Shown in pieces: positions 302 to 48,574 of a stretch of DNA of 64,000 nucleotides. Source of the DNA: Patescibacteria group bacterium (GTDB lineage Bacteria; Patescibacteriota; Patescibacteriia; JAHJFT01); contig JAQTTB010000001.1 of assembly GCA_028710985.1 (NCBI GenBank), forward strand, positions 523,014 to 587,013. Direction: 5' to 3'. Position 1 is the first letter of the stretch. The number at the start of each line of letters is the position of its first letter. The position numbers were made by a program, and so were the translations under genes. Below the pieces are notes generated by a model that was given only the letters and a program-made list of their open reading frames with translations, made no database searches and was not told where the DNA came from.

Positions 302-3300
302 ATGAAATTCGTACACCTGCACACGCACTCCCATTATTCTCTTCTTGACGGTCTTGGAAAAATTCCCGCTTTGGTTAGTCGGGCCAAGGAGCTTGGTATG
401 CCGGCACTCGCACTAACCGATCATGGCGCCATGTACGGCGCTATTGAATTTTATACGACCTGCCGGAAAGAGGGAATTAAGCCGATTATCGGCGTCGAGG
501 CTTATGTTGCGCCGAACCGCCGCTTTGATAAGCGGCCCAGAATTGATGACGGCGCGTTCCATCTCGTTCTGCTTGCCGAAACGCTTGAGGGATACAAAAA
601 TCTTCTGCGGCTAACCTCAAAGGCATATCTTGAGGGATTTTATTATCGGCCGCGCATGGACAAAGAAATTTTGCGGGAGTATTCACGCGGAATAATTGCG
701 TCAACCGCTTGTCTGGGCGGTCAGATACCGCGCGCTCTTATGGCCGAACGCTTTGAAGACGCGGAGAACCTGGTTACCGAATATAAATCAATTTTCGGGG
801 CAGATAATTTTTTTCTTGAGCTTCAGGACCACCCCGAATTGCCGGAATACGAAATTTTAAATCCGCGCATCATGGATCTCGCCAAAGCGACCGGCACCCC
901 ACTTATCGCCACTAAAGACATTCATTACGTTTATCCCGACGATCGCCAGGCACAGGATCTGCTGACTTGCGTGCAGACCGGTAAGACCGTAAATGACACG
1001 GACCGCCTCAACATGGCCAACCATGACGCCTCGATGACATCGCCCGAGCACATGGCCGAGGCCTTTGCTCACGTTCCCGAAGCGATTGAGAATACCGTGA
1101 AAATCGCCGAGCGCTGCAATGTGGAAATTCCGCTCGGCGGCAACATTCTTCCGGTTTTTCACGTGCCGACCGGCGAATCCGACAACGCCTATCTGCGCCG
1201 TCTTTGCGAAAAGGGACTTGGGGATCGCTTTCCCGTCGCCGGACCGGAAATCCGCGAACGGCTTGAGTACGAGCTTAGCACTATTGAACGAATGGGTTTT
1301 GCCTCGTATTTCCTGATTGTTTCGGATTTTGTGAACTGGGCCAAGGATCGAGGCATTATGGTCGGCCCGGGCCGCGGCTCGGCCGCCGGTTCGATCGTAT
1401 CGTATGTTTTAAAAATTACCGACATCGATCCATTGCGCTACGGCCTGCTGTTTGAAAGATTTTTGAATCCGGACCGCATTTCCATGCCGGATATCGACCT
1501 TGATTTTGCCGATGACCGCCGCGGCGAGGTGATTGAGTACGTCGTGAAAAAATACGGCAGCGACAATGTCGCTGGAATCATTACCTTCGGGACAATGGCC
1601 TCGCGCGCTGCGGTGCGCGATGTTGGCCGCGTCCTCGGCTGGCCGTACGGAGAAGTTGATCGCATTGCCAAACTCATCCCGCCGCCGATTCAGGGTAAGC
1701 ATATTCCGCTCGTGAAATCAGTCAAGGAAAATCCCGAGCTCCGCGCTGTCTACGAGGGAGACGCGCGTGTCAAAGAGCTTCTCGATCTCTCCATGAAACT
1801 CGAGGGGACCGTGCGCCACGCGTCCCAGCACGCCTGCGGCATCGTTATTTCCGACAAGCCGCTCACTGAATATGTGCCTCTCCAGGCGGTGCCGGATGGC
1901 GACATTGATCGGGTTACTCAGTATTCGCTCCATCCGATTGAGGATATCGGTCTTCTGAAGATGGACTTCTTGGGGCTCGCGAACCTGACCATCATTCAGA
2001 ACGCGTTGGATATCATCGGCGCGGTTTATCACGAAAAAATTGATATCGAAAAAATTCCTCTGGATGATAAGAAGGCATTCGAACTTCTCGGTCGCGGCGA
2101 AACGACGGGTGTGTTTCAGCTTGAGTCAGACGGCATGAAACGCTACATCAAAGAGCTTAAACCCACGGAAATGGAAGATATTATCGCCATGGTTGCGCTC
2201 TACCGCCCGGGCCCGATGCAATGGATTGACAGTTTCATCCGGCGCAAGCACGGTAAGGAGCGGATTGAATATGAGCATCCGCTGATGGAGAACGCGCTCA
2301 AGAACACATACGGCATTCCGGTTTATCAAGAACAGGTCATGCAGGTTTCAAAAGATATGGCCGGGTTTACCGGCGGCGAGGCCGATACTCTGCGCAAGGC
2401 CATGGGAAAGAAGATTGCCGCGCTCATGAAGGAGATGAAGGATAAATTTATCAAGGGCGCGGTCAAGCAGGGCGTGGCGCGTGACAAAGCCGACAAGGTA
2501 TTTACGCGTCTTGAAGACTTCGCGGCATACGGTTTTAACAAGTCGCACGCCACCTGCTATGCCATGATCGCTTATCGCACCGCGTTTCTCAAGGCGCGTT
2601 ATCCCAATTGTTTTATGGCCGCGCTCATGAATTCCGATTCCCAGAATATCGACCGCATCACCATTGAAGTCGATGAGTGTCGCAAGATGGGGCTGGAGGT
2701 CCTGCCGCCGGATGTTAATGAGTCATTTGGAAAATTTGCCATTGTGCCTAATACCAATAAAATTCGCTGGGGCCTTTCGGCAATCAAAAATCTCGGTGAA
2801 GATATCGTTAAGACAATTGTTCACGAAAGAAAAGCGAACGGCAATTTCCGCGACCTTGAAGATTTTATTTCACGCATCAATACAAAGAATTTTAACAAAA
2901 AATCCCTGGAATCGCTTATCCGCTCCGGCGCGCTTGATTTGTTCGGCGAGCGGAACCAGCTTTTGCAGAATATCGAAATACTTTTGGAATTTCATCGTGG
3001 CATTCAGAAAGAGATTGAAAGCGGCCAGTCCAGTCTCTTTGCCGGGTCGCCCGAGGTCGGCCGGTCAAGGCTCACCCTGCGTCCTGTCCCCGCCGCGCCA
3101 AAGAGAGAGCGTCTGCAGTGGGAGAGAGAACTATTGGGCCTTTACGTCACTGAACATCCGTTTCGCGAGCTCGAGGAGGCGCTCGGTGATGCGATTACAA
3201 GGCTTTCTGAGCTTGCGCACCGGCGCGAGGGATTCGTGAAAATTGGCGGCGTGCTTACAACGATGAAAAAAATCCTGACGAGAAAAAATGAAACCATGCT

Positions 3301-3769
3301 GTTTGCAAGAATTGAGGACACATCCGGAGATATTGAACTTATTATTTTTCCCAATACCTACCGTGATTTTAGCGCCGTTTGGCAGGCGGATAACACGATA
3401 ATCGTTTCCGGAAAAATTTCGGACAAAGATGGGGAACCGAAAGTAATAGTGAACAGCGCCTGCTCCGCGGATAAGGAAAATTGCATGCAGGCGCTTTCCA
3501 TTCTGGAAAACGGCGCCGGCTGGGCGCCGTCCGCGGCTTCTCTTTCGCGCGCGGTGCAGATCGAGATCCCGGGGAGTGCCGCTGGCGAAACTATGGCCCG
3601 GCTCAAGGAGGTACTTCTTGCGTATCCGGGCGGAGAGCGGGTGCGGCTCATAATTGGCAGCGGATACGCGGCCAAAAAAATCGAGCCCGATATTCGCGTG
3701 GATTATTCCGCCGGGCTTGTCGAGGCGGTTGGCGGCCTGCTCGGGCCCGAGAGTATTCGCATGGCGTAG
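302..3769 (+). CDS. dnaE: DNA polymerase III alpha subunit
   Basis: 1155 aa. The N-terminal PHP domain reads HLHTHSHYSLLDG...LALTDHGAMYGAIEFY. Central polymerase motifs FERFLNPDRISMPDIDLDF and C-terminal OB-fold region are present. An AGGAGGG RBS lies upstream. Confidence 0.95.
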   Translation: MKFVHLHTHSHYSLLDGLGKIPALVSRAKELGMPALALTDHGAMYGAIEFYTTCRKEGIKPIIGVEAYVAPNRRFDKRPRIDDGAFHLVLLAETLEGYKNLLRLTSKAYLEGFYYRPRMDKEILREYSRGIIASTACLGGQIPRALMAERFEDAENLVTEYKSIFGADNFFLELQDHPELPEYEILNPRIMDLAKATGTPLIATKDIHYVYPDDRQAQDLLTCVQTGKTVNDTDRLNMANHDASMTSPEHMAEAFAHVPEAIENTVKIAERCNVEIPLGGNILPVFHVPTGESDNAYLRRLCEKGLGDRFPVAGPEIRERLEYELSTIERMGFASYFLIVSDFVNWAKDRGIMVGPGRGSAAGSIVSYVLKITDIDPLRYGLLFERFLNPDRISMPDIDLDFADDRRGEVIEYVVKKYGSDNVAGIITFGTMASRAAVRDVGRVLGWPYGEVDRIAKLIPPPIQGKHIPLVKSVKENPELRAVYEGDARVKELLDLSMKLEGTVRHASQHACGIVISDKPLTEYVPLQAVPDGDIDRVTQYSLHPIEDIGLLKMDFLGLANLTIIQNALDIIGAVYHEKIDIEKIPLDDKKAFELLGRGETTGVFQLESDGMKRYIKELKPTEMEDIIAMVALYRPGPMQWIDSFIRRKHGKERIEYEHPLMENALKNTYGIPVYQEQVMQVSKDMAGFTGGEADTLRKAMGKKIAALMKEMKDKFIKGAVKQGVARDKADKVFTRLEDFAAYGFNKSHATCYAMIAYRTAFLKARYPNCFMAALMNSDSQNIDRITIEVDECRKMGLEVLPPDVNESFGKFAIVPNTNKIRWGLSAIKNLGEDIVKTIVHERKANGNFRDLEDFISRINTKNFNKKSLESLIRSGALDLFGERNQLLQNIEILLEFHRGIQKEIESGQSSLFAGSPEVGRSRLTLRPVPAAPKRERLQWERELLGLYVTEHPFRELEEALGDAITRLSELAHRREGFVKIGGVLTTMKKILTRKNETMLFARIEDTSGDIELIIFPNTYRDFSAVWQADNTIIVSGKISDKDGEPKVIVNSACSADKENCMQALSILENGAGWAPSAASLSRAVQIEIPGSAAGETMARLKEVLLAYPGGERVRLIIGSGYAAKKIEPDIRVDYSAGLVEAVGGLLGPESIRMA

Positions 3770-3825
3770 GTGTTTTTTTAATGTAAAAATGGTATAATAT
3801 TACACACAAATAAAAACACAATTTT

Positions 3826-5019
3826 ATGATACAAGACACTCAAAAACGCCAGGTGACGCGTAAGCCAGTCGCCCATATCGTAAAACAGCGTCCGCCCGCG
3901 GTACGCCTGTACCGCCGGATTGCTATCAGTTTTTTGATTCTGACAATTTTATTACTCGCCTTGGTGGCCTATCTTTCATTCTCTAGCGCCCATATTAAGA
4001 TATTCACGGCCGCCGAAACTGCAAGCGCTGAGTTTGTGGCCGACATCGTCAAGGTGGCGAGCGCGCCTAATCAGGTTGAGGGTAGGATCGTTGAGCGAAT
4101 ATTTGAAAAATCAAAAGAATTTACGCCGTCGGGCGAAGGCAAGACAACGCCAGCCAAGGCCGGCGGGGAAGTAACCATTATTAATAAATATAATAAAGAT
4201 CAGGCGCTCATTGCGACGACGCGTCTTCAGGCGACGGACGGAAAAATTTTTCGTATCGATAAGAGCGTCGTTGTACCGGCCGGCGGCGAGATAAAGGCGA
4301 CTGCTCATGCCGACAAAGAGGGCGCGGAATATGAAATCGGGCCGTCTCATTTCATTATCCCCGGGCTCTGGGAAGGGTTGCGTGACAAGATCTATGCCGA
4401 ATCCGCTTCTCCGATGACCGGCGGAACCGTAACTTTGAAAGTAGTGAGCGCCGACGATCTCACTCGCGCCGAGTCGGAGCTTGCAAGTGAAATATTAGAG
4501 CAGGTCAAGGCCGATTTAATCAGCGAGAACGCGGATCCGCGTTTCTCCAAACCGGTTTTTTCAATTGAAACGTTGGAAAAAGTTTCAGACACAATTCCTG
4601 GGCAGGAGGCTGACAAATTCACAATCAAGCTTAAGGTCAAGGTTATTGCGGTTTTCTATAATGCCGAACAAATGGACGGCGTGATGGCGTCCAAACTAGA
4701 GGAGGCCATGGATAGTGATCACACGCTCGGTGACATCATGGAAGACAGTATTATCTTCACGATTGGCCGCTATGATTCATCAACCGGAATTGTTAATCTC
4801 GCAGTGAGCGCGTTCGGCGAGGCGCGCCTCAAAGAGAACAGCCGGCTTTTGGACAAGCGGAAAATTACCGGCCTTGGCGTGGATGACGCTAAAAAGTATC
4901 TTATGAGTTCGCCGTCAATTGAGAATGTCGAAATTTCCTCAAGCCCGTTCTGGCTCAAGCGCGTCCCGAATTTGGAAGATCATATTGAATATGAAATAAT
5001 TTATGGAGGGACTGAATAA
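3826..5019 (+). CDS. Hypothetical membrane-anchored protein with one N-terminal TM helix and an extracytoplasmic domain.
   Basis: 397-aa ORF with a single N-terminal hydrophobic helix (ISFLILTILLLALVAYLSF). No recognised domain. Confidence 0.5.
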   Translation: MIQDTQKRQVTRKPVAHIVKQRPPAVRLYRRIAISFLILTILLLALVAYLSFSSAHIKIFTAAETASAEFVADIVKVASAPNQVEGRIVERIFEKSKEFTPSGEGKTTPAKAGGEVTIINKYNKDQALIATTRLQATDGKIFRIDKSVVVPAGGEIKATAHADKEGAEYEIGPSHFIIPGLWEGLRDKIYAESASPMTGGTVTLKVVSADDLTRAESELASEILEQVKADLISENADPRFSKPVFSIETLEKVSDTIPGQEADKFTIKLKVKVIAVFYNAEQMDGVMASKLEEAMDSDHTLGDIMEDSIIFTIGRYDSSTGIVNLAVSAFGEARLKENSRLLDKRKITGLGVDDAKKYLMSSPSIENVEISSSPFWLKRVPNLEDHIEYEIIYGGTE

Positions 5020-5024
5020 AAATT

Positions 5025-6818
5025 ATGGAAAAACATGACAAATTAGAAATCATGCGCCATTCGGCCGCCCATGTCATGGCCGCGGCCGTACAAAAACTTT
5101 TTCCGGATGCCAAGTTCGGCATCGGTCCGGTAATTGAGTGCGGTTTTTATTATGATTTTGACATCAGAGAGAATCTCACGCCCGAACATTTGGAGAAGAT
5201 AGAGAAAGAGATGGAGAAGATTATTAAAGAAAAAATTGAGTTTGAGCGCGAGGAAATGGATATCGAATCAGCTATCAATCTGTTCAAAAAACTTGGCCAG
5301 GATTACAAAGTTGAGCTTCTCCGCGATATCAAAGAGAAGGGCACTACGAAATTCAAATCCAGCGAAGAGCAGGAGCTCGTGCAGGAAGGAGAAAAAATTT
5401 CAATTTACCGCACCGGCGATTTCGTTGATCTCTGCCGCGGCCCTCATGTCAAAAATACTGGTGAAATAAAAGTCTTCAAACTTCTGAATCTTGCCGGAGC
5501 CTATTGGCGCGGTTCGGAAAAGAACCCCATGCTCCAGCGCATTTACGCCACGGCCTGGGAAAAACAGAAAGATCTGGACGAGTATCTTCGCGTCCAGGAA
5601 GAGGCCACCAAGCGCGACCACCGCAAGCTCGGCAAAGAGCTGGATATTTTCATATTCAACGAAAACATCGGCAAGGGCCTGCCTCTCTTATTGCCGAACG
5701 GCCGCGTTCTACGCGATGAGATTCTTAAGCTCGAGCGCGAGATTGAAGACACAGTCGGCTTTGAAAGGGTCTGGACTCCGCAAATCGCGAAAAGTGATCT
5801 CTACAAGCTCACTGGTCACTGGGACCATTATCAAGACACCATGTTTCCAGCTTTCGGCATGGAGGACGAAACCTACGTGCTCCGGCCGATGAACTGCCCG
5901 CATCACTACATGATTTATAAAAACAAGCCGCACAGCTACCGCGAACTGCCGCTGCGCATCACCGAAGACGGAACCTGCTATCGTTTTGAAAAATCCGGTG
6001 AACTCGGCGGACTCGCGCGCGTGCGCTGCCTTACAATTGATGACGCCCACATTTTTATTATGCCGAGCCAGATTGAAGAAGAATACCCGCGCCTCATCGG
6101 CATGGCGAAAAAGATGTTTGATGCGTTCCAACTCAAAGACTATTATGTCCGGCTTTCCACGCACGATCCGGAGAACACGGAAAAATATATTTCCGACCAG
6201 AATACCTGGAACAAGGCCGAAGCCCTGCTGGAAAAAATCGTCAAAGCGAATAACATCAAGTATGTTATCGGCAAGGGCGAAGCCGCCTTCTACGGGCCAA
6301 AGCTCGATTTCATCGTTCACGACGCCATCGGCCGCGAATGGCAGATGTCCACGCTTCAGATCGATTTCTTCATGGCCGAGCGGCTTGGCATGACTTATAT
6401 TGATGATAAGGGACAAGACGCTTATCCCATCATCATTCACCGTGGGTTCACCGGTTCACTTGAGCGCACCATCGCCATGCTGATTGAGCATTTCAGCGGC
6501 GCTTTTCCGGTCTGGCTCGCACCGGTTCAGGTGAAACTCATACCGGTCGGAGCCGGGCACATTGATTTTTGCGCCGCTTTGCACAAAGAATTTTTATCCC
6601 TGGGCATTCGTTCGCGCGTTGATGATGCCAATGAAACCGTGGGCAATAAAATCCGCAAGGCGGAAAAAGAAAAAGTACCCTACATGCTCGTGGTCGGGGA
6701 TAAAGAAATGAGCGGAGAAGAAATGACCGTCCGCGTTCGGGGAGAAAAGGACCAGATCAAGATGGCCAAGCCGGAATTTACAGAAAAAATCCTCGGCGAG
6801 ATAAAGAACCGGACATAA
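5025..6818 (+). CDS. thrS: Threonyl-tRNA synthetase (short N-terminus)
   Basis: 597 aa. The N-terminal editing/second-additional-domain motif HSAAHVMAAAVQKLFP is followed by a class II aaRS core and a C-terminal anticodon-binding domain. Confidence 0.9.
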   Translation: MEKHDKLEIMRHSAAHVMAAAVQKLFPDAKFGIGPVIECGFYYDFDIRENLTPEHLEKIEKEMEKIIKEKIEFEREEMDIESAINLFKKLGQDYKVELLRDIKEKGTTKFKSSEEQELVQEGEKISIYRTGDFVDLCRGPHVKNTGEIKVFKLLNLAGAYWRGSEKNPMLQRIYATAWEKQKDLDEYLRVQEEATKRDHRKLGKELDIFIFNENIGKGLPLLLPNGRVLRDEILKLEREIEDTVGFERVWTPQIAKSDLYKLTGHWDHYQDTMFPAFGMEDETYVLRPMNCPHHYMIYKNKPHSYRELPLRITEDGTCYRFEKSGELGGLARVRCLTIDDAHIFIMPSQIEEEYPRLIGMAKKMFDAFQLKDYYVRLSTHDPENTEKYISDQNTWNKAEALLEKIVKANNIKYVIGKGEAAFYGPKLDFIVHDAIGREWQMSTLQIDFFMAERLGMTYIDDKGQDAYPIIIHRGFTGSLERTIAMLIEHFSGAFPVWLAPVQVKLIPVGAGHIDFCAALHKEFLSLGIRSRVDDANETVGNKIRKAEKEKVPYMLVVGDKEMSGEEMTVRVRGEKDQIKMAKPEFTEKILGEIKNRT

Positions 6819-39684: not shown

Positions 39685-40551
39685 ATGTTTATTTATCTTA
39701 TCCAAATAGTCTGTTTCGTGCTCTTCGGCGTTCTGGCAGTAATCGCGCTGCGCCGCCGTGAGCTTTGGACTTTGTTCGTGGCGACGATTTACGCCGCTTT
39801 TTTTGAAAATCTCGACATCATCATTTCCCGCGGAGAGTTTGGCAGTTACACCTATGATCCCCATCTTATCCTCATCGTCATTCAAACCCCGCTTTTTGTC
39901 ATTCTGTCCTGGGGCATAATTTTTTACTCATCATTCCTGCTTGCGAAAGGGCTGACCCGAAAGTTTTGGATTCAGGCGCTCTCCGTGCCTCTTCTCGCAA
40001 CAATTATAGATTTGACCATGGATCCGGTGGCCACACGGCTTGGGTTGTGGTCATGGCAGGGCTATGGCGCGCACGACGGCATTCTCGGCGTGCCGCTCGC
40101 GAATTTCATGGGCTGGTATCTCGTAGTGTTTGCACTCATGATCACCTTGCGCCTTATCGGTCACATTGATTTTTTGGGACGAACGGGCCGCAATGTCATC
40201 ATGCCAATTTTTTCCTGCGGGCTTTTTTTTATTTTTTTCGCTGCGTTCAGTTTTACGGCCAATGCGTTCGGCCTGAATATTTCAAATCAGTTTAATTTTA
40301 TCCAATTTTTCTTTCCGCCGGTTGCGGCGGCTTGCATTATCGGTTGGATATTATTTCCGGGAAAAATCAGCATCAGTCGTAGCCATCTTTTTTGGATGTA
40401 TGCATCGCGTGGGCTTTTCTACATATTTTCGGTTTACGGATTAATCGCTCTGGGCTTCTGGAAAGAGCCGGTGTTCATTATTCTGCTGGTCTTCTCGCTG
40501 GTTATCGAAATCATTGCAGGTATAAAATTTAAAATAAATGCCAAGACTTAG
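39685..40551 (+). CDS. Polytopic membrane protein (hypothetical)
   Basis: 288 aa, about 8 TM helices. A TTGTCA-17-TAGAAT promoter ends only about 6 nt before the ATG, so the mRNA may be leaderless. Confidence 0.5.
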   Translation: MFIYLIQIVCFVLFGVLAVIALRRRELWTLFVATIYAAFFENLDIIISRGEFGSYTYDPHLILIVIQTPLFVILSWGIIFYSSFLLAKGLTRKFWIQALSVPLLATIIDLTMDPVATRLGLWSWQGYGAHDGILGVPLANFMGWYLVVFALMITLRLIGHIDFLGRTGRNVIMPIFSCGLFFIFFAAFSFTANAFGLNISNQFNFIQFFFPPVAAACIIGWILFPGKISISRSHLFWMYASRGLFYIFSVYGLIALGFWKEPVFIILLVFSLVIEIIAGIKFKINAKT

Positions 40552-41917
40552 CGCTTCACAGCTTTACAATTTTTCTCAGTGCCCCTACCGCGTCCACCTT
40601 GATATTTTCGGAGATGAGAAAGAGAAATCGCCGGAATCGGATTTCCTCGCCATGCTGATCGAGGAGGGCGTGCGTCATGAAAAAGACGCCATCGCTGAAA
40701 TGCCATTCTTAGAGGTGGAGGCGCGCGGCACGCTTACGGCACGAGCCGAAGTTACACGCGACCTGATGAAAAAGAAAACGCCCTGGATTTATCAGGGCGT
40801 GCTTCTGACTCGCACCATGGTCGGCATTCCTGATATTTTGGAATATACGGGCGGCCGGTATATCCCCGTGGAAATCAAGTCCGGTGCCGGTCTTAAGGAA
40901 GCGTATATCCAGCAAATCTGTTTTTACGATGAGTTGCTCGGCGAGCTTTTTGGACGTCGTTCGGGTCGCGGTAAAATAATAAATATCAAGAAAGAAATTT
41001 TGGAAGTGGACTGCAATGCCTCGCGTCGCGCCTTTCTTGATAACCTTGCCGCCCTTAAGAAAATCGCCTCGGGTGAAGAAGAGAGTGAGCTGGCCATCGG
41101 TTCGGATTGCAATAACTGCCACTGGAGAAAATTCTGCGAAGAAAAAGCGCGCGCCGAAGATGATCTTACTCTGATCCACGGTCTCGGCCGAGCGTTCAAA
41201 GAGGGGCTGAGGCAGGCCGGGATCAAAACCCAGGGCCAAGCCGCTAAGGTCGATCCGTCGCTCGCGCGCGAAATCCGGCGCCTCGGTCCGGCAAAGCTTG
41301 AAAAATTCCGCGAACAGGCTAAGGTGAACATTGCCGGCAAGATGATGGTTTTCGCGAGGCCCACGATGCGCTGCGCGCCCCTCGAGATATTCATCGATCT
41401 CGAAGGGGATCCGATGCTCGGGATAGACTACCTTATTGGTATGATCGTCCGAAAAAAGGGTAAGGAGCAGTATGTCAGCTTCGTTGCCCGCCGGCCCGAA
41501 GATGAGGCCGCGATGTGGGAGGAGTTCCTTAATTTCATGGCCGGCATCTCGGAAGATTACATTCTTTATCATTATCATAATTATGAAAAAGTGCATTTCA
41601 AGATGCTGTTCGAAAAATATGGCGGCGACGGAGAGCTTTATCATGAAATCGACTATGCGCTCGAGGATCTGAAGAGAACGATCGATAAATCAATGTATCT
41701 TCCGCTTACGCGCTATAGCCTCAAGTGCGTTGCGCGCCATTTGGGTTTTGAATGGCGCGCGGGAGAAGAGGCCGGAGGCGCAAATTCCATTATCTGGTAC
41801 GAGAAATATCTTGGGGATACTGAAAAGAATGCAGATTTGATGCAAAAAATTATTGACTACAATGCCGATGACTGCCGCGCGACCCGTGTGGTCAAAGACT
41901 GGCTTGAGAAAATTTGA
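40538..41917 (+). CDS. RecB-family nuclease of the TM0106/TIGR03491 type. It fuses a Cas4-like PD-(D/E)XK domain carrying a Cys cluster to an RNase H-like 3-prime-5-prime exonuclease domain.
   Basis: The N-terminus reads SQLYNFSQCPYRVHLD. A Cys cluster CNNCHWRKFC and a C-terminal region IDLEGDP...YHYHNYEK...DDCRAT are present. Confidence 0.6.
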   Translation: MPRLSASQLYNFSQCPYRVHLDIFGDEKEKSPESDFLAMLIEEGVRHEKDAIAEMPFLEVEARGTLTARAEVTRDLMKKKTPWIYQGVLLTRTMVGIPDILEYTGGRYIPVEIKSGAGLKEAYIQQICFYDELLGELFGRRSGRGKIINIKKEILEVDCNASRRAFLDNLAALKKIASGEEESELAIGSDCNNCHWRKFCEEKARAEDDLTLIHGLGRAFKEGLRQAGIKTQGQAAKVDPSLAREIRRLGPAKLEKFREQAKVNIAGKMMVFARPTMRCAPLEIFIDLEGDPMLGIDYLIGMIVRKKGKEQYVSFVARRPEDEAAMWEEFLNFMAGISEDYILYHYHNYEKVHFKMLFEKYGGDGELYHEIDYALEDLKRTIDKSMYLPLTRYSLKCVARHLGFEWRAGEEAGGANSIIWYEKYLGDTEKNADLMQKIIDYNADDCRATRVVKDWLEKI

Positions 41918-43199: not shown

Positions 43200-43508
43200 A
43201 TATATTTAGCCGTAAGGAGTGGTGATACGCTCTCTATGGCGATAGTTCGGGAAAACAAAATCTCACCATCCGGTGAGATTTTGCTTTCTAGAGTGTCGTC
43301 GCTTGACAGTTTTTCGCTTGTATTGTAATATATTGTTATCAATTTAATTTTTGCCGAAGATAACGGGGGTTTCAGCCAGAGGCTGAGGCTTAAAACCACA
43401 CCCCGTCGAGGTGAAATTCCGGCCTGACACTACTTTTAGGTCATGGACTCGGACCTCGTTATCTGCGGCAAAACCGCAGTTTATTTTTTACCCAAAGGTC
43501 GCAACTAT
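43200..43508 (+). promoter_or_regulatory. rplJ promoter (TTGACA-17-TAATAT at about 43303-43333) plus a long structured 5-prime leader, the likely L10(L12) autoregulatory leader.
   Basis: About 200 nt of untranslated, hairpin-rich sequence directly upstream of rplJ. The role is inferred from the known L10-leader mechanism. Confidence 0.4.
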
Positions 43509-44033
43509 ATGCCAAAAACAAGAGTACAGAAAGAAAATACCGTTTCCGACTTGGTCGACAAATTCAGCCGCACCAAGTCAGTGGTTTTTGCCGATTTTCA
43601 GGGGCTCAAAATGCCGGAAATCGACGAATTGCGCAACCAATGCCTAAAGCAGGGCATTTCTTACTCAGTCGCCAAAAAGACCCTGGTGCGCATCGCGCTT
43701 GAGAAAGCGGGCGTCAAAGAGATTGATCCAAAGTCAATTGAAGGTTCGCTCGCCACGGTTTTTGGATTTGAGGATGAGGTCGCGCCTGCAAAATTGCTCG
43801 CCACCTTCTCCAGAGCGCACGAGGCGCTCAAGATTAAAGCCGGCATACTTGAAGGCCGGCTCATTCCGTTCGAAGAAGTAATGAAGCTTTCTAAGATACC
43901 GTCAAGGCTTGAGCTTTATGCCATGCTCGTTCGTACCATGAATGGACCGGTTTCCGGATTCGCCAATGTTCTTGCTGGAAATCTGCGGAAATTTATGTAC
44001 GCATTAAACGCAATCAAAGAATCTAAATCATAA
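43509..44033 (+). CDS. rplJ: 50S ribosomal protein L10
   Basis: The internal start [33 protein letters not shown] gives 174 aa. The ORF track starts at 43443. Confidence 0.85.
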
Positions 44034-44047
44034 ATAATTTTAAAAAT

Positions 44048-44452
44048 ATGGCAGAAGAGAAAAAAGACGTCGTGGTTCCGGAAAAATTCAAGAAGCTCGT
44101 TGAGGAAGTTGAAAAAATGAGCGTACTTGATCTCTCGGAACTCGTTAGCATTCTTGAGGATAAATTCGGCGTTTCGGCCGCCGCTCCGGCAGTTGCCGTT
44201 GCCGCCGCCGCTCCAGTCGCCGCCGAAGCCGCCGATGAAAAGACCGAGTTCAATCTTGAACTCCTTGAAGCCGGCGCCAACAAGATCAACGTGATTAAGG
44301 TGGTTCGTGAAGTCACGGGTTTAGGCCTCGCCGATGCCAAGGCCATCGTTGACAGCGCACCGAAGATAGTGAAAGAAGCCATGCCAAAGGCTGATGCCGA
44401 AGCCGCCAAAAAGAAGATTGAGGAAGCCGGCGGAAAAGCAGCTCTCAAATAA
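44048..44452 (+). CDS. rplL: 50S ribosomal protein L7/L12
   Basis: An Ala-rich hinge and a C-terminal domain [28 protein letters not shown]. Confidence 0.9.
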
Positions 44453-44465
44453 TTGGTTACAAAAT

Positions 44466-44506
44466 AAAAAAAGAACGGCCGTGTAATTATGCGGCCGTTC
44501 TTTTGA
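44466..44506. terminator. Terminator/palindrome aaaataaaaaaagaacggccg-tgtaattatg-cggccgttctttt. It is the left copy of a pair.
   Basis: Read directly. Its 21-nt left arm is identical to the one at 46296. Confidence 0.6.
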
Positions 44507-44554
44507 TTTTTTTAAAAAAAGAGGCATCGCGTTTGCGATGCCCGAGCGGCGTAG

Positions 44555-45460
44555 TTAAATACCGAGTTTTCTTAATGCCCTCAGTCCGTTAAAGCGGTCG
44601 ACGAGCTTGGTTTCAGTGCGGTTGTGCGGAGCACAGTATTCGGTCGCCCCCCAGAAAGCGCCCATCATGCCAGCGGCCTGGGCAAAATTTGCACGGCCGC
44701 GTTTGACCGAGTACAGGCGGCCGCGTATCTTGCGCAGATAGTGCCGCGGGATAAAGATGCGGCTGGTCTTATCCATGGCAATGCCGTTGATGACCACCGG
44801 AGCCTTTTGGATGTCGCGGACAATGGATTTCTTATGGTTGATCTGGAATCCAGCCGCGAGAATGATGCGCCGTATCATCTGCCGCTTTCTTTTGCCGATC
44901 GGTTCAGTCGCCGAAAAGGTCAGGTCGTCGAGATAGCGCGTATAGATGATGCCGTGGCGCCGGCAGAATTCGCCGAGCGGCCGGTCAAGAAGTTCGCCGG
45001 CATAGCGGTTGGCAAGATCCGGCGAAGCCGGCGCGCCGGTTGCGAGCCCACCCTCGTCTGCTATGCAGTACTTATTAAGAAAGGCGAGAAGCCCTGTCTC
45101 GTCCTCCATCAGCCGTTCGTCAAGATTCATGAGTATCCCGGCGAGCCGCTCGGCGTCCACGCTCGGATAGAAATTGTGGATGTCGGTGAGGTAGAAAAAG
45201 CGGTTGCCGCGGTGCCGGAGCACATTTTTCTTGGGGGATGAGCCGCGCATCGCGCCGGTGGCGTGCGGCAGGGGATGGTGCTCGAGAAGGTGGCGCCGCA
45301 AGTAAAAGATTAGCCCGCGGTGGACCTGGCGCATCGCGTTATTTGGCGCGTAGAGCGTGCGCATTTTTACGGTCTTCGCTACCGGATTTACGTCTCTGTA
45401 GGTAAATTTGTTGAACCCCGGAGTCCCATCTATGTTTTTCAGAATTATATCAAAGAGCAT
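44555..45460 (-). CDS. Retron-type reverse transcriptase
   Basis: An internal ATG at 45460 carries a TAAGGAGGG RBS. The motifs match the order seen in retron Ec86 RT: KMRTLYAPNNAMRQVHRGL, LTDIHNFYPSV, LATGAPASPDLANRY, GIIYTRYLDDLTFS (YxDD), FQINHKKS and VVINGIAM. The length is about 300 aa. The ORF-track N-terminal extension to 45880 reads through non-coding repeats. Confidence 0.8.
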   Translation of the reverse strand: MLFDIILKNIDGTPGFNKFTYRDVNPVAKTVKMRTLYAPNNAMRQVHRGLIFYLRRHLLEHHPLPHATGAMRGSSPKKNVLRHRGNRFFYLTDIHNFYPSVDAERLAGILMNLDERLMEDETGLLAFLNKYCIADEGGLATGAPASPDLANRYAGELLDRPLGEFCRRHGIIYTRYLDDLTFSATEPIGKRKRQMIRRIILAAGFQINHKKSIVRDIQKAPVVINGIAMDKTSRIFIPRHYLRKIRGRLYSVKRGRANFAQAAGMMGAFWGATEYCAPHNRTETKLVDRFNGLRALRKLGI

Positions 45461-45537
45461 GGCGCCCTCCTTATAGATTTTTGTGTAGGTTGATTTTAGT
45501 ACAGCGCCGAATAAAATGCAAGTAAATTTTTTTGGTA

Positions 45538-45900
45538 TAAAAAACGCATCAAACCAGGGGTTTGACGCGAAGGGAGAAACCCGATTTTCATCGGGCAGTG
45601 AATTCACAGCGGCGGGTTGGCCAAGTTCGTTGCCCGATTCTGGGTTCTGCGGACAACGATCAAGAGAACAGACTTTGCCGCTGAGGCTTCGATGCAGGGC
45701 CGAAACGGCAGCGCCGAGGCCGCAGGCCGGGGCGCCCTCTGTGCCGAAAGAAGAAGAGAAGGGGCGGATACTATGGCAATTTCCGTTTCCGGAAATCCCG
45801 CTGGCGCACCTTGATGCGCCAACCCTCGTGGGCAAGAGCACTTTGGCGTCCAGCCAGAACCAGGAAACCGTCTTGGCCAACCCGGACTGGACTTGGCTTT
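45538..45900 (-). ncRNA. Structured non-coding RNA unit 1, a candidate retron msr-msd-like RNA
   Basis: a1/a2-like long-range complement gggttggccaag (45613-45624) / cttggccaaccc (45872-45883). Hairpin cccga-N-tcggg. A terminal hairpin gcatcaaa...tttgacgc next to an A/T run. Homologous to unit 2 with compensatory changes. Confidence 0.4.
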
Positions 45901-45911
45901 ATCCTATCATA

Positions 45912-46295
45912 AACAAAAAAACGCATCAAACCAGGGGGTTTGATGCGAAGAGAGAGAGTCCCGACTCGGTCGGGAAGAAAGTGCAGCGGCGGGTTTGAGT
46001 CATTGTCCGCAAGGGACTTTCCGGGCATGGGAGCTTGCCGCTGAAGATACCCGTGGCGTCCGAGGGCACTGAACAACGGGCCGAATCAGCCACTGCGGCC
46101 GCTGATCCGCCTCATGCAGATACCAACGGGAGCGCTTCGGGTTGCCCAGGGGCGATGGGGTACTGTTCAAAGCCCTGGTTTAACCCTTTGGCGCACCTGA
46201 AATGCGCCAAGACGATGAGCACCGAGGATCTCACCCGGAATGAACTAGCTCAAACCCAGCCAAGGTGGCTATGAAGAGGGTAGCATAAAATTCAA
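45912..46295 (-). ncRNA. Structured non-coding RNA unit 2, tandem paralog of unit 1
   Basis: a1/a2-like complement cgggtttgag (45992-46001) / ctcaaaccc (46250-46258). Hairpin cccgac-tcg-gtcggg. Terminal hairpin gcatcaaa...tttgatgc followed by an A/T run. Confidence 0.4.
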
Positions 46296-46336
46296 AATAA
46301 AAAAAGAACGGCCGCGATATCGTGGGCCGTTCTTTT
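46296..46336. terminator. Terminator/palindrome aaaataaaaaaagaacggccg-cgatatcgtg-ggccgttctttttt. It is the right copy of the pair.
   Basis: Read directly. Confidence 0.6.
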
Positions 46337-48574
46337 TTATTCGCTGAATCCGAAATTCCAGACGCCGTTGTCGGCCAGCACCCAGATTTGGCGTGCCGTG
46401 CGATCGATGTAAAAACTTTTTATATTCTGCAGGTCGTTCAGGAGGTATTGAGTTTTGAGTTTACCGTCCTTGGCCAGTACTACAACACGTTTTCCGGCCG
46501 GGTCAAGAATAAATATATTGTCCGTACCCTCGGTCGTCCAAATTTGCGTCGCGCCCGTCAGCGCGGGATCAATGGTCGTAGCCGACCAGGATTGTTTTTC
46601 ACCGGTATAGAATTTATAAATTTCACCATTTGATTTCAGGGCGTAAATCGAGCCGTCAATCGTAATGGCGACTGCGTCCGAAAGATTGACATTCGCAGTT
46701 TTAATCCAGGCCGCGCCGGCCGCGAGCCCGGAATCGGGCGAGCGGTGCTGCTTAAATATTTGGTTCGCCGTGGTGTCCAAGACATAAATATTTGAATTCC
46801 AGCCGGCCGCGTCAATAAAGCTCTTTTGTTCGGCCGCGGCGGCGAGGGGAACGTCCCTCCACGAAAGTCCGGCCACGTCAATTTCCGAAGCCCCTGGGCG
46901 CTGGTCGAAAACCAAATATGAATTATCGCCGGATTTGTAAATCGCGGTAATGCTTTGTATATCCGCATTTTCCCAGTCAACTTCCTGCCAGGCATTCGCG
47001 TCGTCGCGCCAGACATAAAGTTCTTTTGCCCCGGAAAGAATCAAAGTTTTATCGGCGTTTCGCAGGAGATAACGAAAGTTAATCGTCTGGCCTTCGGCGC
47101 TGAGCGGCATGTCGGCGACTTTCTCTAAATCGTTTGGAATGACTTCATGGCGGAGCTCTTGGCGTAAAATATCAATTTGGGCGAGAAGTCCCTGTTTGAT
47201 TTCGCGCTGATCGCGCTTTGCTTCCGGTAGCGACTGGATTGCGGATAGCGCTTGGCTCACAAGCTCACGCGTGCGTTCCTCGTCGCCGTAGATCAGGGTA
47301 CTCTCGGCCTCGTCTTTTATTTGAGTGATCTCAATCACTTTATTATTATAAACCGCCTCGTCTTCGCGTGCATGTTTCCGATAGTTGAGATAAATCAGGC
47401 TCCATGCAAAAAGTAGCACCAGGATAAGGGCGATGATAAAAACCGATTTATTTTTCTTGCCGAGATGGCTGAACCAGCCGACCGAGCGGTCTCCGGTTTC
47501 CTGGGCATCGCTCTTATAGCTCGCGATGGTTTCGGCGCGTTTGCCGTGGAAGTTCGTAATGATAAAAAATAAGTTTTTGAAGAAGCGGCCGGTGATGCCG
47601 ATTGCGCGGAGCGTGATGGCACCGATCCAAATAAAGAATTTGGCAATGCTCCGGGGGAGTTCGCGCGGGGTTGGAGCGATTTTTTCCTCATATTTCGGGC
47701 CGCGTATTGGTATCAGTCGTGAAATTACCGCAGTGAGCCCAGCCCAAATCTTTGAGGCAAACCCAGTGCCGCCGCCTAAAAGATATCGGTCGGTTTCCGC
47801 GGTAGTCGCCTTAAGATGCTCAAGCGAACCTCGGAAATTCTTCGGTGCCGCCGCTTCGGTGCCGACCGGGATAAGTTCTTCATAATGCTGGATGATAATG
47901 GCCGTATATCCGCCGCGCAGACTGCCGTGCAAAAGTTCATTGCGCAGATATTCGACGGATTCGACCGGTTTTTTCGCGGTTACAATCGGCAACAGCCGTT
48001 CTTCGGGGAAGGCTTCGGCCAGTTCGGAGTTTGAGATTATTATGGCATCCCCGCTTTGGATGGAGCCGTACATTACATTTTCAAAAATTTTAACGGGATT
48101 AAAATTATCCGGATCGGATTGAACGTTCTTCGTAAGATCAAAAACGCGGTAACCTTTGCCATCCTGCTTCTGGAAAAACATCATTTTATTCTGGCCGATC
48201 GCGGAGAACGAAAGGTCCGTGCCGGAGCAAGCGGCGATTAAGATATTCAATTTCTTAAGATCCACCGGATTGGATTCTTTGGAGATAAAATCCGTGATAT
48301 TTTTATTGGTCGCCTGTAGGGATTTTTCAAACTCCGCGCCAAAGTCAATGCCATGCTCTTCCTGATAAAATTTTTCAATGCCGTCGATAAAGTTTTCGGT
48401 CAAACGTTCGTAGGCTGGATGGATGGAGTCGATTTTAATAATGCCAAAAATAGATCCGCCTTCATGCGCCGCACCCGGTGGAATTTCAAAATTAAAAACG
48501 CGGTTAATGCATTGGCGGTTCGTTGCGCTTTCTAGGAAAAGCTCGTTTATGAGTATCTCCGGCTTCTTTGACAT
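46337..48574 (-). CDS. Large hypothetical membrane protein. It has an N-terminal cytoplasmic domain, a central TM helix and a C-terminal extracytoplasmic beta-rich domain.
   Basis: 745 aa. The central helix is SVFIIALILVLLFAWSLIYLNY. No confident domain assignment. Confidence 0.5.
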   Translation of the reverse strand: MSKKPEILINELFLESATNRQCINRVFNFEIPPGAAHEGGSIFGIIKIDSIHPAYERLTENFIDGIEKFYQEEHGIDFGAEFEKSLQATNKNITDFISKESNPVDLKKLNILIAACSGTDLSFSAIGQNKMMFFQKQDGKGYRVFDLTKNVQSDPDNFNPVKIFENVMYGSIQSGDAIIISNSELAEAFPEERLLPIVTAKKPVESVEYLRNELLHGSLRGGYTAIIIQHYEELIPVGTEAAAPKNFRGSLEHLKATTAETDRYLLGGGTGFASKIWAGLTAVISRLIPIRGPKYEEKIAPTPRELPRSIAKFFIWIGAITLRAIGITGRFFKNLFFIITNFHGKRAETIASYKSDAQETGDRSVGWFSHLGKKNKSVFIIALILVLLFAWSLIYLNYRKHAREDEAVYNNKVIEITQIKDEAESTLIYGDEERTRELVSQALSAIQSLPEAKRDQREIKQGLLAQIDILRQELRHEVIPNDLEKVADMPLSAEGQTINFRYLLRNADKTLILSGAKELYVWRDDANAWQEVDWENADIQSITAIYKSGDNSYLVFDQRPGASEIDVAGLSWRDVPLAAAAEQKSFIDAAGWNSNIYVLDTTANQIFKQHRSPDSGLAAGAAWIKTANVNLSDAVAITIDGSIYALKSNGEIYKFYTGEKQSWSATTIDPALTGATQIWTTEGTDNIFILDPAGKRVVVLAKDGKLKTQYLLNDLQNIKSFYIDRTARQIWVLADNGVWNFGFSE

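Follow-up and report, generated by a model that had tools for sequence, protein, structure and literature searches.

A retron-clade reverse transcriptase accompanied by tandem structured RNAs in Patescibacteria

A 64,000-nucleotide stretch of the genome of a Patescibacteria group bacterium (contig JAQTTB010000001.1, positions 523,014 to 587,013; this whole stretch is called 'the window') carries, next to the ribosomal protein gene rplL, a cassette made of a reverse transcriptase (RT) gene of the retron clade and two copies of a structured non-coding RNA (ncRNA). Retrons generally have three parts, an RT, an ncRNA and an effector, and are understood as defence systems, mainly of Proteobacteria; to our knowledge, very few defence systems are known from Patescibacteria. 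The cassette is probably a retron-like RT-ncRNA element of a new, Patescibacteria-wide lineage, which would make reverse-transcribed DNA (RT-DNA) from its ncRNA units. An initial annotation of the sequence had noticed the RT gene; it missed the partner RNA and the lack of an effector gene, and did not recognise the cassette as an insertion. What is new here is a retron-like lineage that is effector-less, has multiple ncRNAs, extends across the Patescibacteria and comes with a new RNA family.

An RT of the retron clade

The gene and its expression signals are as follows.

44555-45460, minus strand: RT gene, retron clade, 301 aa (assigned from profiles, PDB, fold and family alignment), with motifs PNNAMRQVH, NVLRH (region X), FFYLTD, TGAPASPDLAN, YTRYLDDLTFS, INHKKS and VINGIA (region Y)
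44522-44543, minus strand: intrinsic terminator hairpin 3' of the RT gene, GGGCATCGC-AAAC-GCGATGCCT followed by a T-run
45465-45473, minus strand: ribosome-binding site (RBS) TAAGGAGGG, 4 nt 5' of the RT ATG, read from the sequence
45493-45521, minus strand: promoter-like TTGCAT-17-TAAAAT, with a good -10 and a weak -35

The reading frame runs from an ATG at 45460 to a stop at 44555, and all its catalytic motifs are intact. This start is retained because the RBS and an N-terminal alignment with about 110 homologues agree on it. A longer open reading frame (ORF) at 44555-45880 (441 aa, TTG start at 45880) was rejected as an artefact of the GC-rich RNA region, since the family alignment and the RBS fix the start; the ORF at 45516-45998 on the plus strand, which overlaps the RNA region, is an artefact of the same kind. 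Across the family, the catalytic D94 of motif 2 never changes, nor do Y177, D179 and D180 of YLDD, H84 of NAXXH and G227 of the VTG position. The protein is an RT and nothing else, with no further domain found by Pfam or in the AlphaFold2 model.

By sequence, profile and fold, the RT belongs to the retron clade. Pfam RVT_1 matches it at 1.6e-10, and the PADLOC retron RT models match the window protein at 1e-23 to 1.6e-34. Among NCBIfam models, the retron St85 RT scores 2e-33, as against 9e-8 for Drt3a, 5e-6 for Drt2 and 6e-5 for the group II RT/maturase. When the PDB was searched with a profile of 50 family members, retron Ec83 (4e-34) and Ec86 (2e-32) came out on top, followed by Ec78, Ec67, the St85 type, Kva2 and Eco8, all ahead of the non-retron RTs (group II GsI-IIC 2e-11, DRT2 9e-8, Drt3a, DRT9, the RT of diversity-generating retroelements (DGRs) 2.5e-4, and AbiK 4e-4). 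Overall, matches to DGR, group II, Abi and UG/DRT enzymes are more than 20 orders of magnitude weaker than those to retron RTs. The AlphaFold2 model (pLDDT 95.6, pTM 0.90) tells the same story: the best 18 Foldseek matches in the PDB are all retron RTs, and the DGR RT ranks 26th.

Two signatures are described for retron RTs, the NAXXH of region X, in which H is most conserved, and the VTG triplet of region Y in RT7, in which G is most conserved (PMC7736814). Region X is present as NVLRH, aligned to NAKIH of Ec83, with an H that all family members share. At the VTG position, the window RT has ING, V and T being substituted; the family has (I/V)(N/T)G, some members VTG or ITG, with the G invariant. 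All 50 family members match PADLOC retron models, nearly every type model scoring alike (1e-27 to 1e-39). By these type models and by the NCBIfam cut-offs, the window RT is equidistant from all 13 described retron types and a member of none. Since the type models score alike and the scores stay under the cut-offs, we conclude that this is a retron-clade RT of a separate lineage.

The initial annotation had called the ORF a retron-type RT, and this holds: the ORF is present and intact, the frame containing YLDD is undisturbed, and every motif quoted (KMRTLYAPN, LTDIHNFYPSV, GAPASPDLANR, YTRYLDDLTFS, QINHKKS and VINGIA) was found. The comparison with DGR, group II, Abi and UG models that it proposed as a check comes out in favour of retrons. 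It was also right about the RBS, about the terminator (a hairpin at 44543-44522 on the minus strand) and about the adjacency to rplL on the opposite strand, as rplJ and rplL are confirmed on the plus strand. Its promoter exists at 45521-45493; nevertheless, the -35 hexamer TTGCAT has three of six consensus bases and a consensus scan made no call there.

The RT family is common across small-genome Patescibacteria, also known as the Candidate Phyla Radiation (CPR). An exhaustive HMMER search at E<1e-30 gave 255 cluster representatives (50% identity). A word-indexed search gave 112 relatives, most of them 40 to 52% identical to the window RT and nearly all about 300 aa long; where organism names are given, which is the case for few of these, they read Patescibacteria, Parcubacteria, Paceibacterota or plain 'bacterium'. 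A scan of GTDB, with one genome per species, found 40 loci of the family, hosted by Parcubacteria, Paceibacterota, Kerfeld-, Wildermuth-, Zambryski-, Vogel-, Campbell-, Harrison- and Andersenbacteria and by some bins auto-labelled TPA; it also gave three distant RTs of Planctomycetota (27 to 31% identity). A phage origin was considered and rejected, no member being present among the 2.9 million viral contigs searched. The initial annotation had called retrons rare to unreported in lineages that resemble CPR organisms. As for reports, no description of retrons in CPR, Patescibacteria or Parcubacteria was found in the searchable literature; rare they are not, given the 255 clusters and the 40 GTDB species loci.

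A structured RNA family on the RT strand

The non-coding interval that separates the RT gene from the next one is GC-rich, measures about 830 nt and holds two tandem units of about 378 nt on the RT strand. Each unit folds into a long closing stem enclosing hairpins, with fold z-scores of -4.9 (unit A) and -3.9 (unit B); the stem sequences of the two units differ and their pairing is kept. Elements of unit A and unit B, all on the minus strand, are listed below under the names used for the family.

45537-45915: ncRNA unit A, RT-proximal, complete including its own terminator
45830-45884: unit A, 5' arm of the long terminal stem (a1 arm)
45824-45829: unit A, R5, ACGAGG (family consensus nUGAGG), complementary to CCUC(A) of X
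45801-45822: unit A, HP1, covarying hairpin UUGGCGCA-UCAAG-GUGCGCCAG, msr-like
45778-45797: unit A, HP2, covarying hairpin GAUUUCCG-GAAA-CGGAAAUU, msr-like
45687-45777: unit A, HP3 region with U-rich 5' strand, msd-like
45678-45686: unit A, X motif CCUCAGCGG, holding the family-invariant AGC
45613-45677: unit A, 3' arm of the terminal stem (a2 arm), pairing with 45830-45884
45606-45612: unit A, R3, CCGCUGU (family CCGCUGA), invariant 3' tail at the stem base, complementary to X
45580-45595: unit A, small hairpin preceding the terminator
45545-45569: unit A, intrinsic terminator, hairpin and U-run
45916-46292: ncRNA unit B, RT-distal, same architecture with different stem sequences and an enlarged HP2
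about 46235-46261: unit B, a1 arm
46229-46234: unit B, R5
46186-46211: unit B, HP1
46038-46046: unit B, X
45990-46037: unit B, a2 arm
45983-45989: unit B, R3
45960-45974: unit B, small hairpin
45922-45947: unit B, terminator

Homologous RT genes carry the same RNA elements in their upstream regions. A covariance model was built on HP1 and HP2, the two best-conserved hairpins, and searched over 439 kb (loci are designated below by L and a number). At E<=0.006 it gave 40 matches, all 40 on the RT strand; after iteration there were 46, of which 45 lay on the RT strand, distributed over 32 of the 47 RT loci, and there were none in six control loci. Copy number per locus ranges from one to four, mostly in tandem upstream of the RT (three copies in L002 and L005, four in L020), and a unit is sometimes found downstream of the RT (L011, L012, L017, L018, L022, L028 and L034). 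The sole match on the opposite strand (L036:3822-3893, minus strand, E=2.5e-4), about 110 nt upstream of the RT, may be an inverted unit or a false positive. In L007, a bacterial RNase P RNA gene (2387-2779, plus strand) lies directly 5' of the ncRNA unit and the RT and fills most of the non-coding gap.

HP1 and HP2 covary. In the alignment, 91.4% of cells are paired, compared to 64.3% in shuffles, and both sides vary in all 16 of the 16 pairs; the covariation score is 0.785, compared to 0.277 for shuffled alignments and at most 0.18 with slid partners. Many of the pairs are G-U, abundantly so in HP1, and this fixes the strand. A transcript from the opposite strand was rejected on three grounds, namely the co-orientation of the model matches with the RT, the G-U pairs of HP1 and the minus-strand terminators. 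Searches of Rfam 15 found no family for the ncRNA in the window at E<=1, nor, with gathering thresholds, in 12 other loci. The ncRNA is a previously uncatalogued family, absent from Rfam, that accompanies the RT family.

From 5' to 3', a unit consists of the variable a1 arm, R5, an A-rich spacer of about 10 nt, HP1, HP2, a linker with HP3, X, the variable a2 arm and R3. Family-wide, HP1 has 9 bp and HP2 has 7 bp with a GAAA-type loop; HP3 varies in length from 37 to 156 nt. The motif consensuses are CC-n-n-UGAGG for R5, gaA-CCUCAGCGG for X and CCGCUGA for R3. In 28 of 31 units, the interval from X to R3 pairs with the segment just 5' of R5, over 19 to 46 bp (median z of -4 compared to shuffles). 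The terminal helix begins 0 to 6 nt after X in 25 of the 31 units and 10 to 28 nt after it in the other six, and it ends exactly at R3 in all but one. As predicted from these sequences, the unit RNA is one long terminal stem (a1 arm and R5 paired with X and a2 arm) topped by three hairpins.

X and R3 are essentially invariant (C-A-G-C in 30 to 31 of the 31 units for the former, G-C-U in 31 of 31 for the latter), and the surrounding helices show free covariation. R5 and R3, each complementary to X, are also imperfect direct repeats of one another. Pairing of X with R3 would be incompatible with the long a1:a2 stem, because the a2 arm occupies the whole interval between them. A candidate fourth motif 5' of the a1 arm, pairing with R3, was discarded, as it was present in just four of the 31 units.

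The terminators that close units A and B (45537-45570 and 45916-45950) form a 40-nt repeat with 92% identity. The 3' arm of the unit B terminator (TTGATG) lies 17 nt upstream of a TAGGAT box, so that, as read by eye, terminator and next promoter may overlap. In L012, both strands of the internal loop that separates the terminal stem from the R5:X helix (3760-3800 and 3935-3960) contain a direct repeat of 9 nt (UGGCUCUAC), and L013 has a similar, imperfect internal-loop repeat; these repeats may be due to chance or relate to template switching.

An insertion without a conserved neighbour gene

The initial annotation had placed the RT 'where rpoB should be'. Two relatives without the RT contradict this. 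In L052 and L053, whose homologues of the 745-aa protein are 61% and 57% identical to that of the window, rplL and the 745-aa gene converge on a gap of 58 nt, which contains a single terminator, made of an A-run, a hairpin and a T-run, and neither RT nor rpoB. No rpoB-sized ORF was found in the 64-kb window, the largest being a 1155-aa DnaE. In the window, the same interval between rplL and the 745-aa gene holds a 1.78-kb cassette between two copies of a 49-nt terminator hairpin.

44460-44508, strandless: left copy of the 49-nt bidirectional terminator hairpin (rplL terminator), cassette boundary
46293-46341, strandless: right copy of the 49-nt terminator hairpin (745-aa gene terminator), cassette boundary
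46337-48574, minus strand: 745-aa gene next to the cassette

The two copies are 76% identical, with stems and flanks conserved, and their sequence has no other occurrence in the 64 kb. The GC content of the cassette is about 57 to 61%, compared to about 45 to 50% in its surroundings. As the relatives without the RT hold one shared terminator in 58 nt, the cassette is an insertion into the shared rplL/745-aa terminator, which was duplicated.

Similar boundaries are seen elsewhere. In L026, a 1.6-kb cassette of two ncRNA units and the RT lies between perfect direct copies, 87 nt long, of the miaA 5' end (3344-3430 and 5032-5118), with no integrase between them; the left copy retains a different start region of miaA and is joined to a foreign reading frame of 74 aa. 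L035 has a 3.2-kb mini-island (1958-5226) at a tRNA-Ala gene, composed of the tRNA (1958-2032), a 162-aa ORF, a tyrosine integrase (2689-3621), an ncRNA match at about 3764, the RT (4010-4909) and a closing 45-nt repeat of the tRNA 3' end (5182-5226). In L002 and L005, a tyrosine integrase lies just upstream of the three-unit RNA arrays. On the basis of the L026 and L035 boundaries, the RT/ncRNA module is mobile cargo, which in the integrase-free cases may have been moved by recombinases acting in trans or by the RT itself.

To look at linked genes, ORFs were clustered, taking in every one of 70 aa or more that lies no further than 3.5 kb from one of the 47 RT loci. The largest cluster of neighbour genes was present in four of the 47 loci, and its member in L015 is an amino-acid permease; in a cluster found in three loci, the members in L002 and L035 are tyrosine integrases. 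The neighbours are varied housekeeping genes, such as tRNA synthetases, a release factor, ATP synthase and glycosyltransferases, and the one recurrent neighbour of note is the tyrosine integrase, in L002, L005 and L035. There being no conserved neighbour gene, no effector is linked to the RT/ncRNA cassette. The 745-aa gene was rejected as an effector as well: it is kept beside rplL in relatives without the RT, and therefore lies outside the system. Its product has no Pfam or NCBIfam match in the window copy; the homologues are 53 to 61% identical, and one of them has a precomputed PF00558 match.

Proposed mechanism, alternatives and surrounding genes

Known retrons offer a model for what such a cassette may do. 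By this analogy, the RT would bind the two conserved short hairpins HP1 and HP2, prime from a guanosine 2'-OH where the long terminal stem has its conserved junction, and copy part of the ncRNA into single-stranded RT-DNA (multicopy single-stranded DNA, msDNA), so that the two units of the window would yield two different products. In retrons, the priming guanosine stands in an AGC context (PMC6868368), and the most likely priming residue here would be the invariant G of the AGC in X, which in unit A is at 45681. The position of this AGC on the 3' strand of the stem would make the 5' arm the template, in a permuted layout. In a canonical alternative, priming would take place just after R5, from a non-conserved G, and the variable hairpin HP3 would be copied. 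As for the biological role, the lack of a linked effector suggests that the complex of RT and RT-DNA works with an unlinked partner, or alone, or mainly serves the spread of the cassette. A bolder and less likely reading is a Patescibacteria-specific, effector-free retron lineage in which one RT serves arrays of two to four different template RNAs, the priming G sits on the 3' strand (a circularly permuted msr/msd) and re-pairing of the 3' tail acts as a switch; the cassette may insert itself, with target duplications of 45 to 90 bp.

Several observations weigh against a retron-like element. The RT falls below every type-specific cut-off of NCBIfam (for St85, 116 bits compared to the 235 required), an effector protein or fused effector domain is absent at the cassette, and 15 of the 47 RT loci have no ncRNA match under the current model. 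HP3 has modest fold z-scores (median -1.8, below -2 in 12 of 31 units). Covariation of R5:X and X:R3 was not significant in concatenated motif windows, because the motifs hardly vary; individual compensatory cases exist for the X pairings (UGAGA:UCUCA, UGAAGG:CCUUCA and CAGCGU:ACGCUG). The invariant AGC directly follows a helix strand (CCUC), but it is the 3' strand of the terminal stem that carries it, and on the 5' strand R5 is not followed by a conserved G in the 31 units; in every characterised retron that we know of, AGC follows the 5' arm. Finally, both window units end in intrinsic terminators before the RT gene, which has its own promoter-like site, so that units and RT are probably not co-transcribed in the window as they are in classical retrons. 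Most loci have about 25 nt between the end of the last ncRNA unit and the RT start codon, the unit being followed by the RT RBS; arrays have a hairpin or terminator instead.

The resemblance to retrons is nevertheless extensive. In retron msr-msd transcripts, terminal inverted repeats hybridise, the msr forms one to three short hairpins and the msd a long stem-loop (PMC7736814). The ncRNA described here has this layout, with its hybridising terminal repeats, the short, conserved and covarying HP1 and HP2 and the one long variable hairpin HP3, and it lies adjacent to the RT gene on the same strand. Further points in common with retrons such as Eco1/Ec86, Eco4/Ec83 and Sen2/St85 are the RT fold, the motifs, region X (N-x-x-x-H), the G of RT7, a length of about 300 aa, a conserved AGC beside a helix end, and the location of the module on small islands with varying insertion sites. 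Unlike retrons, the Patescibacteria cassette is equidistant from the 13 types and under their cut-offs, has neither effector gene nor fused effector domain, and carries its ncRNA in one to four tandem copies, sometimes 3' of the RT, those of the window each with its own terminator. Its terminal stem is very long (19 to 46 bp) with the invariant AGC on the 3' strand, the additional 3' tail of its RNA, CCGCUGA, is invariant and complements the AGC motif, and the host range of the family is the Patescibacteria.

The absence of an effector has a parallel within the retrons. The Retron-Eco5 (Ec107) branch, in retron RT clade 2, is mostly without an associated protein (PMC7736814). Our cassette shares this trait with it, and the PADLOC RT_Ec107-like model matches the window RT at 1.3e-29; however, the window RT is no nearer to Ec107 than to other retron models. 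The Ec107 branch is gammaproteobacterial, with a single canonical msr-msd.

Outside the retrons, the layout is closest to that of DRT2 (UG2), also a two-component system with a solitary RT, an upstream structured ncRNA and no effector gene. The DRT2 ncRNA is the template for a rolling-circle cDNA that encodes a toxic repeat protein. By a DRT2-like mechanism, the RT would copy the template between R5 and R3, which flank most of each unit as imperfect direct repeats (CCnnUGAGG and CCGCUGA), and would jump from repeat to repeat to give concatemeric cDNA, with no branched msDNA. DRT2 does appear among the structural matches, but the window RT is much nearer to retron RTs (1e-34 compared to 5e-6 for Drt2), and the DRT2 enzyme belongs to another clade and is larger, by about 120 aa. 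Moreover, the two repeats lie at opposite ends of the long stem, R5 at the top and R3 at the base, and so are not brought together, the region between them is dominated by conserved scaffold hairpins, and nothing in the cassette points to a rolling-circle toxic-repeat product. We consider this mechanism unlikely.

Two other readings appear very improbable. DGRs represent about 80% of the RTs reported from CPR (PMC8632793), and a small RT beside a non-coding region recalls them, the upstream RNA then being the template repeat that mutagenises a target gene. Against this, no second copy (variable repeat) of any part of 45480-46300 was found in the 64-kb window, units A and B differ by general divergence rather than by adenine-specific changes, and no Avd-like or target gene is conserved nearby. 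Motif 4, GAPASPDL, is of the 'SP' type of retrons and group II introns, and the DGR RT ranks low in both the fold and the sequence search. A remnant of a group II intron, or an RT of the UG/Abi type like UG38, is equally improbable. Insertion beside a terminator hairpin is reminiscent of class C group II introns, and UG38 occurs in CPR, having been reported from Parcubacteria (PMC9226505); yet no Rfam group II intron or other family was found in the window region or in the 12 other loci, the RT has no maturase or endonuclease domain, and group II models (6e-5) and UG/DRT models (9e-8 at best) score far behind the retron models (1e-34).

A selfish or self-mobilising cassette, in which the RT and the RNA mainly spread a 1.6- to 1.8-kb module with long target duplications instead of serving the host, has somewhat more in its favour than a DRT2-like mechanism, though we still regard it as improbable. 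It would account for the window insertion, with its duplicated 49-nt terminator and no recombinase inside, for the 1.6-kb module within the perfect 87-nt miaA repeat of L026, for an insertion site that differs in every locus, and for a GC content atypical of the host genome. On the other hand, the L035 module is carried by a tyrosine-integrase island of the ordinary sort at tRNA-Ala, and an integrase adjoins the module in L002 and L005, so that conventional recombinases, whether acting in cis or in trans, can account for the movement. The RT itself has no endonuclease or integrase domain, there is one copy per locus and no multi-copy signature was found, and we know of no retron that retrotransposes. 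A retron-like element that makes RT-DNA from its ncRNA units is the reading we retain.

A whole lineage of solitary retron-type RTs with tandem RNAs (at least 255 clusters at 50% identity) is thus present in the smallest bacterial genomes. It raises the questions of what role a retron plays without a toxin and whether a retron-like module can move autonomously. Should the units be reverse-transcribed, the lineage would consist of naturally occurring multi-template retrons whose RTs are compact, at 300 aa, of direct relevance to retron-based genome editing, where arrays are built artificially. The RNA family, whose two hairpins covary and whose three motifs are invariant and complementary to one another, makes a clear candidate for an Rfam entry and for biochemistry.

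The genes on the other side of the cassette are the following.

43443-44033, plus strand: rplJ
44048-44452, plus strand: rplL

Just 5' of rplJ, at 43336-43494 on the plus strand, there is a sub-threshold match to the ribosomal protein L10 leader RF00557 (32 bits compared to a gathering threshold of 44, E=0.015), at the position expected for the L10/L12 autoregulatory leader. Further upstream, a gene at 40538-41917 (plus strand) encodes a 459-aa protein with a Cas4/PD-(D/E)XK nuclease region and an RNase_H_2 superfamily domain. This gene is also found near rplJL in L053, where there is no RT, and it is therefore not tied to the cassette.

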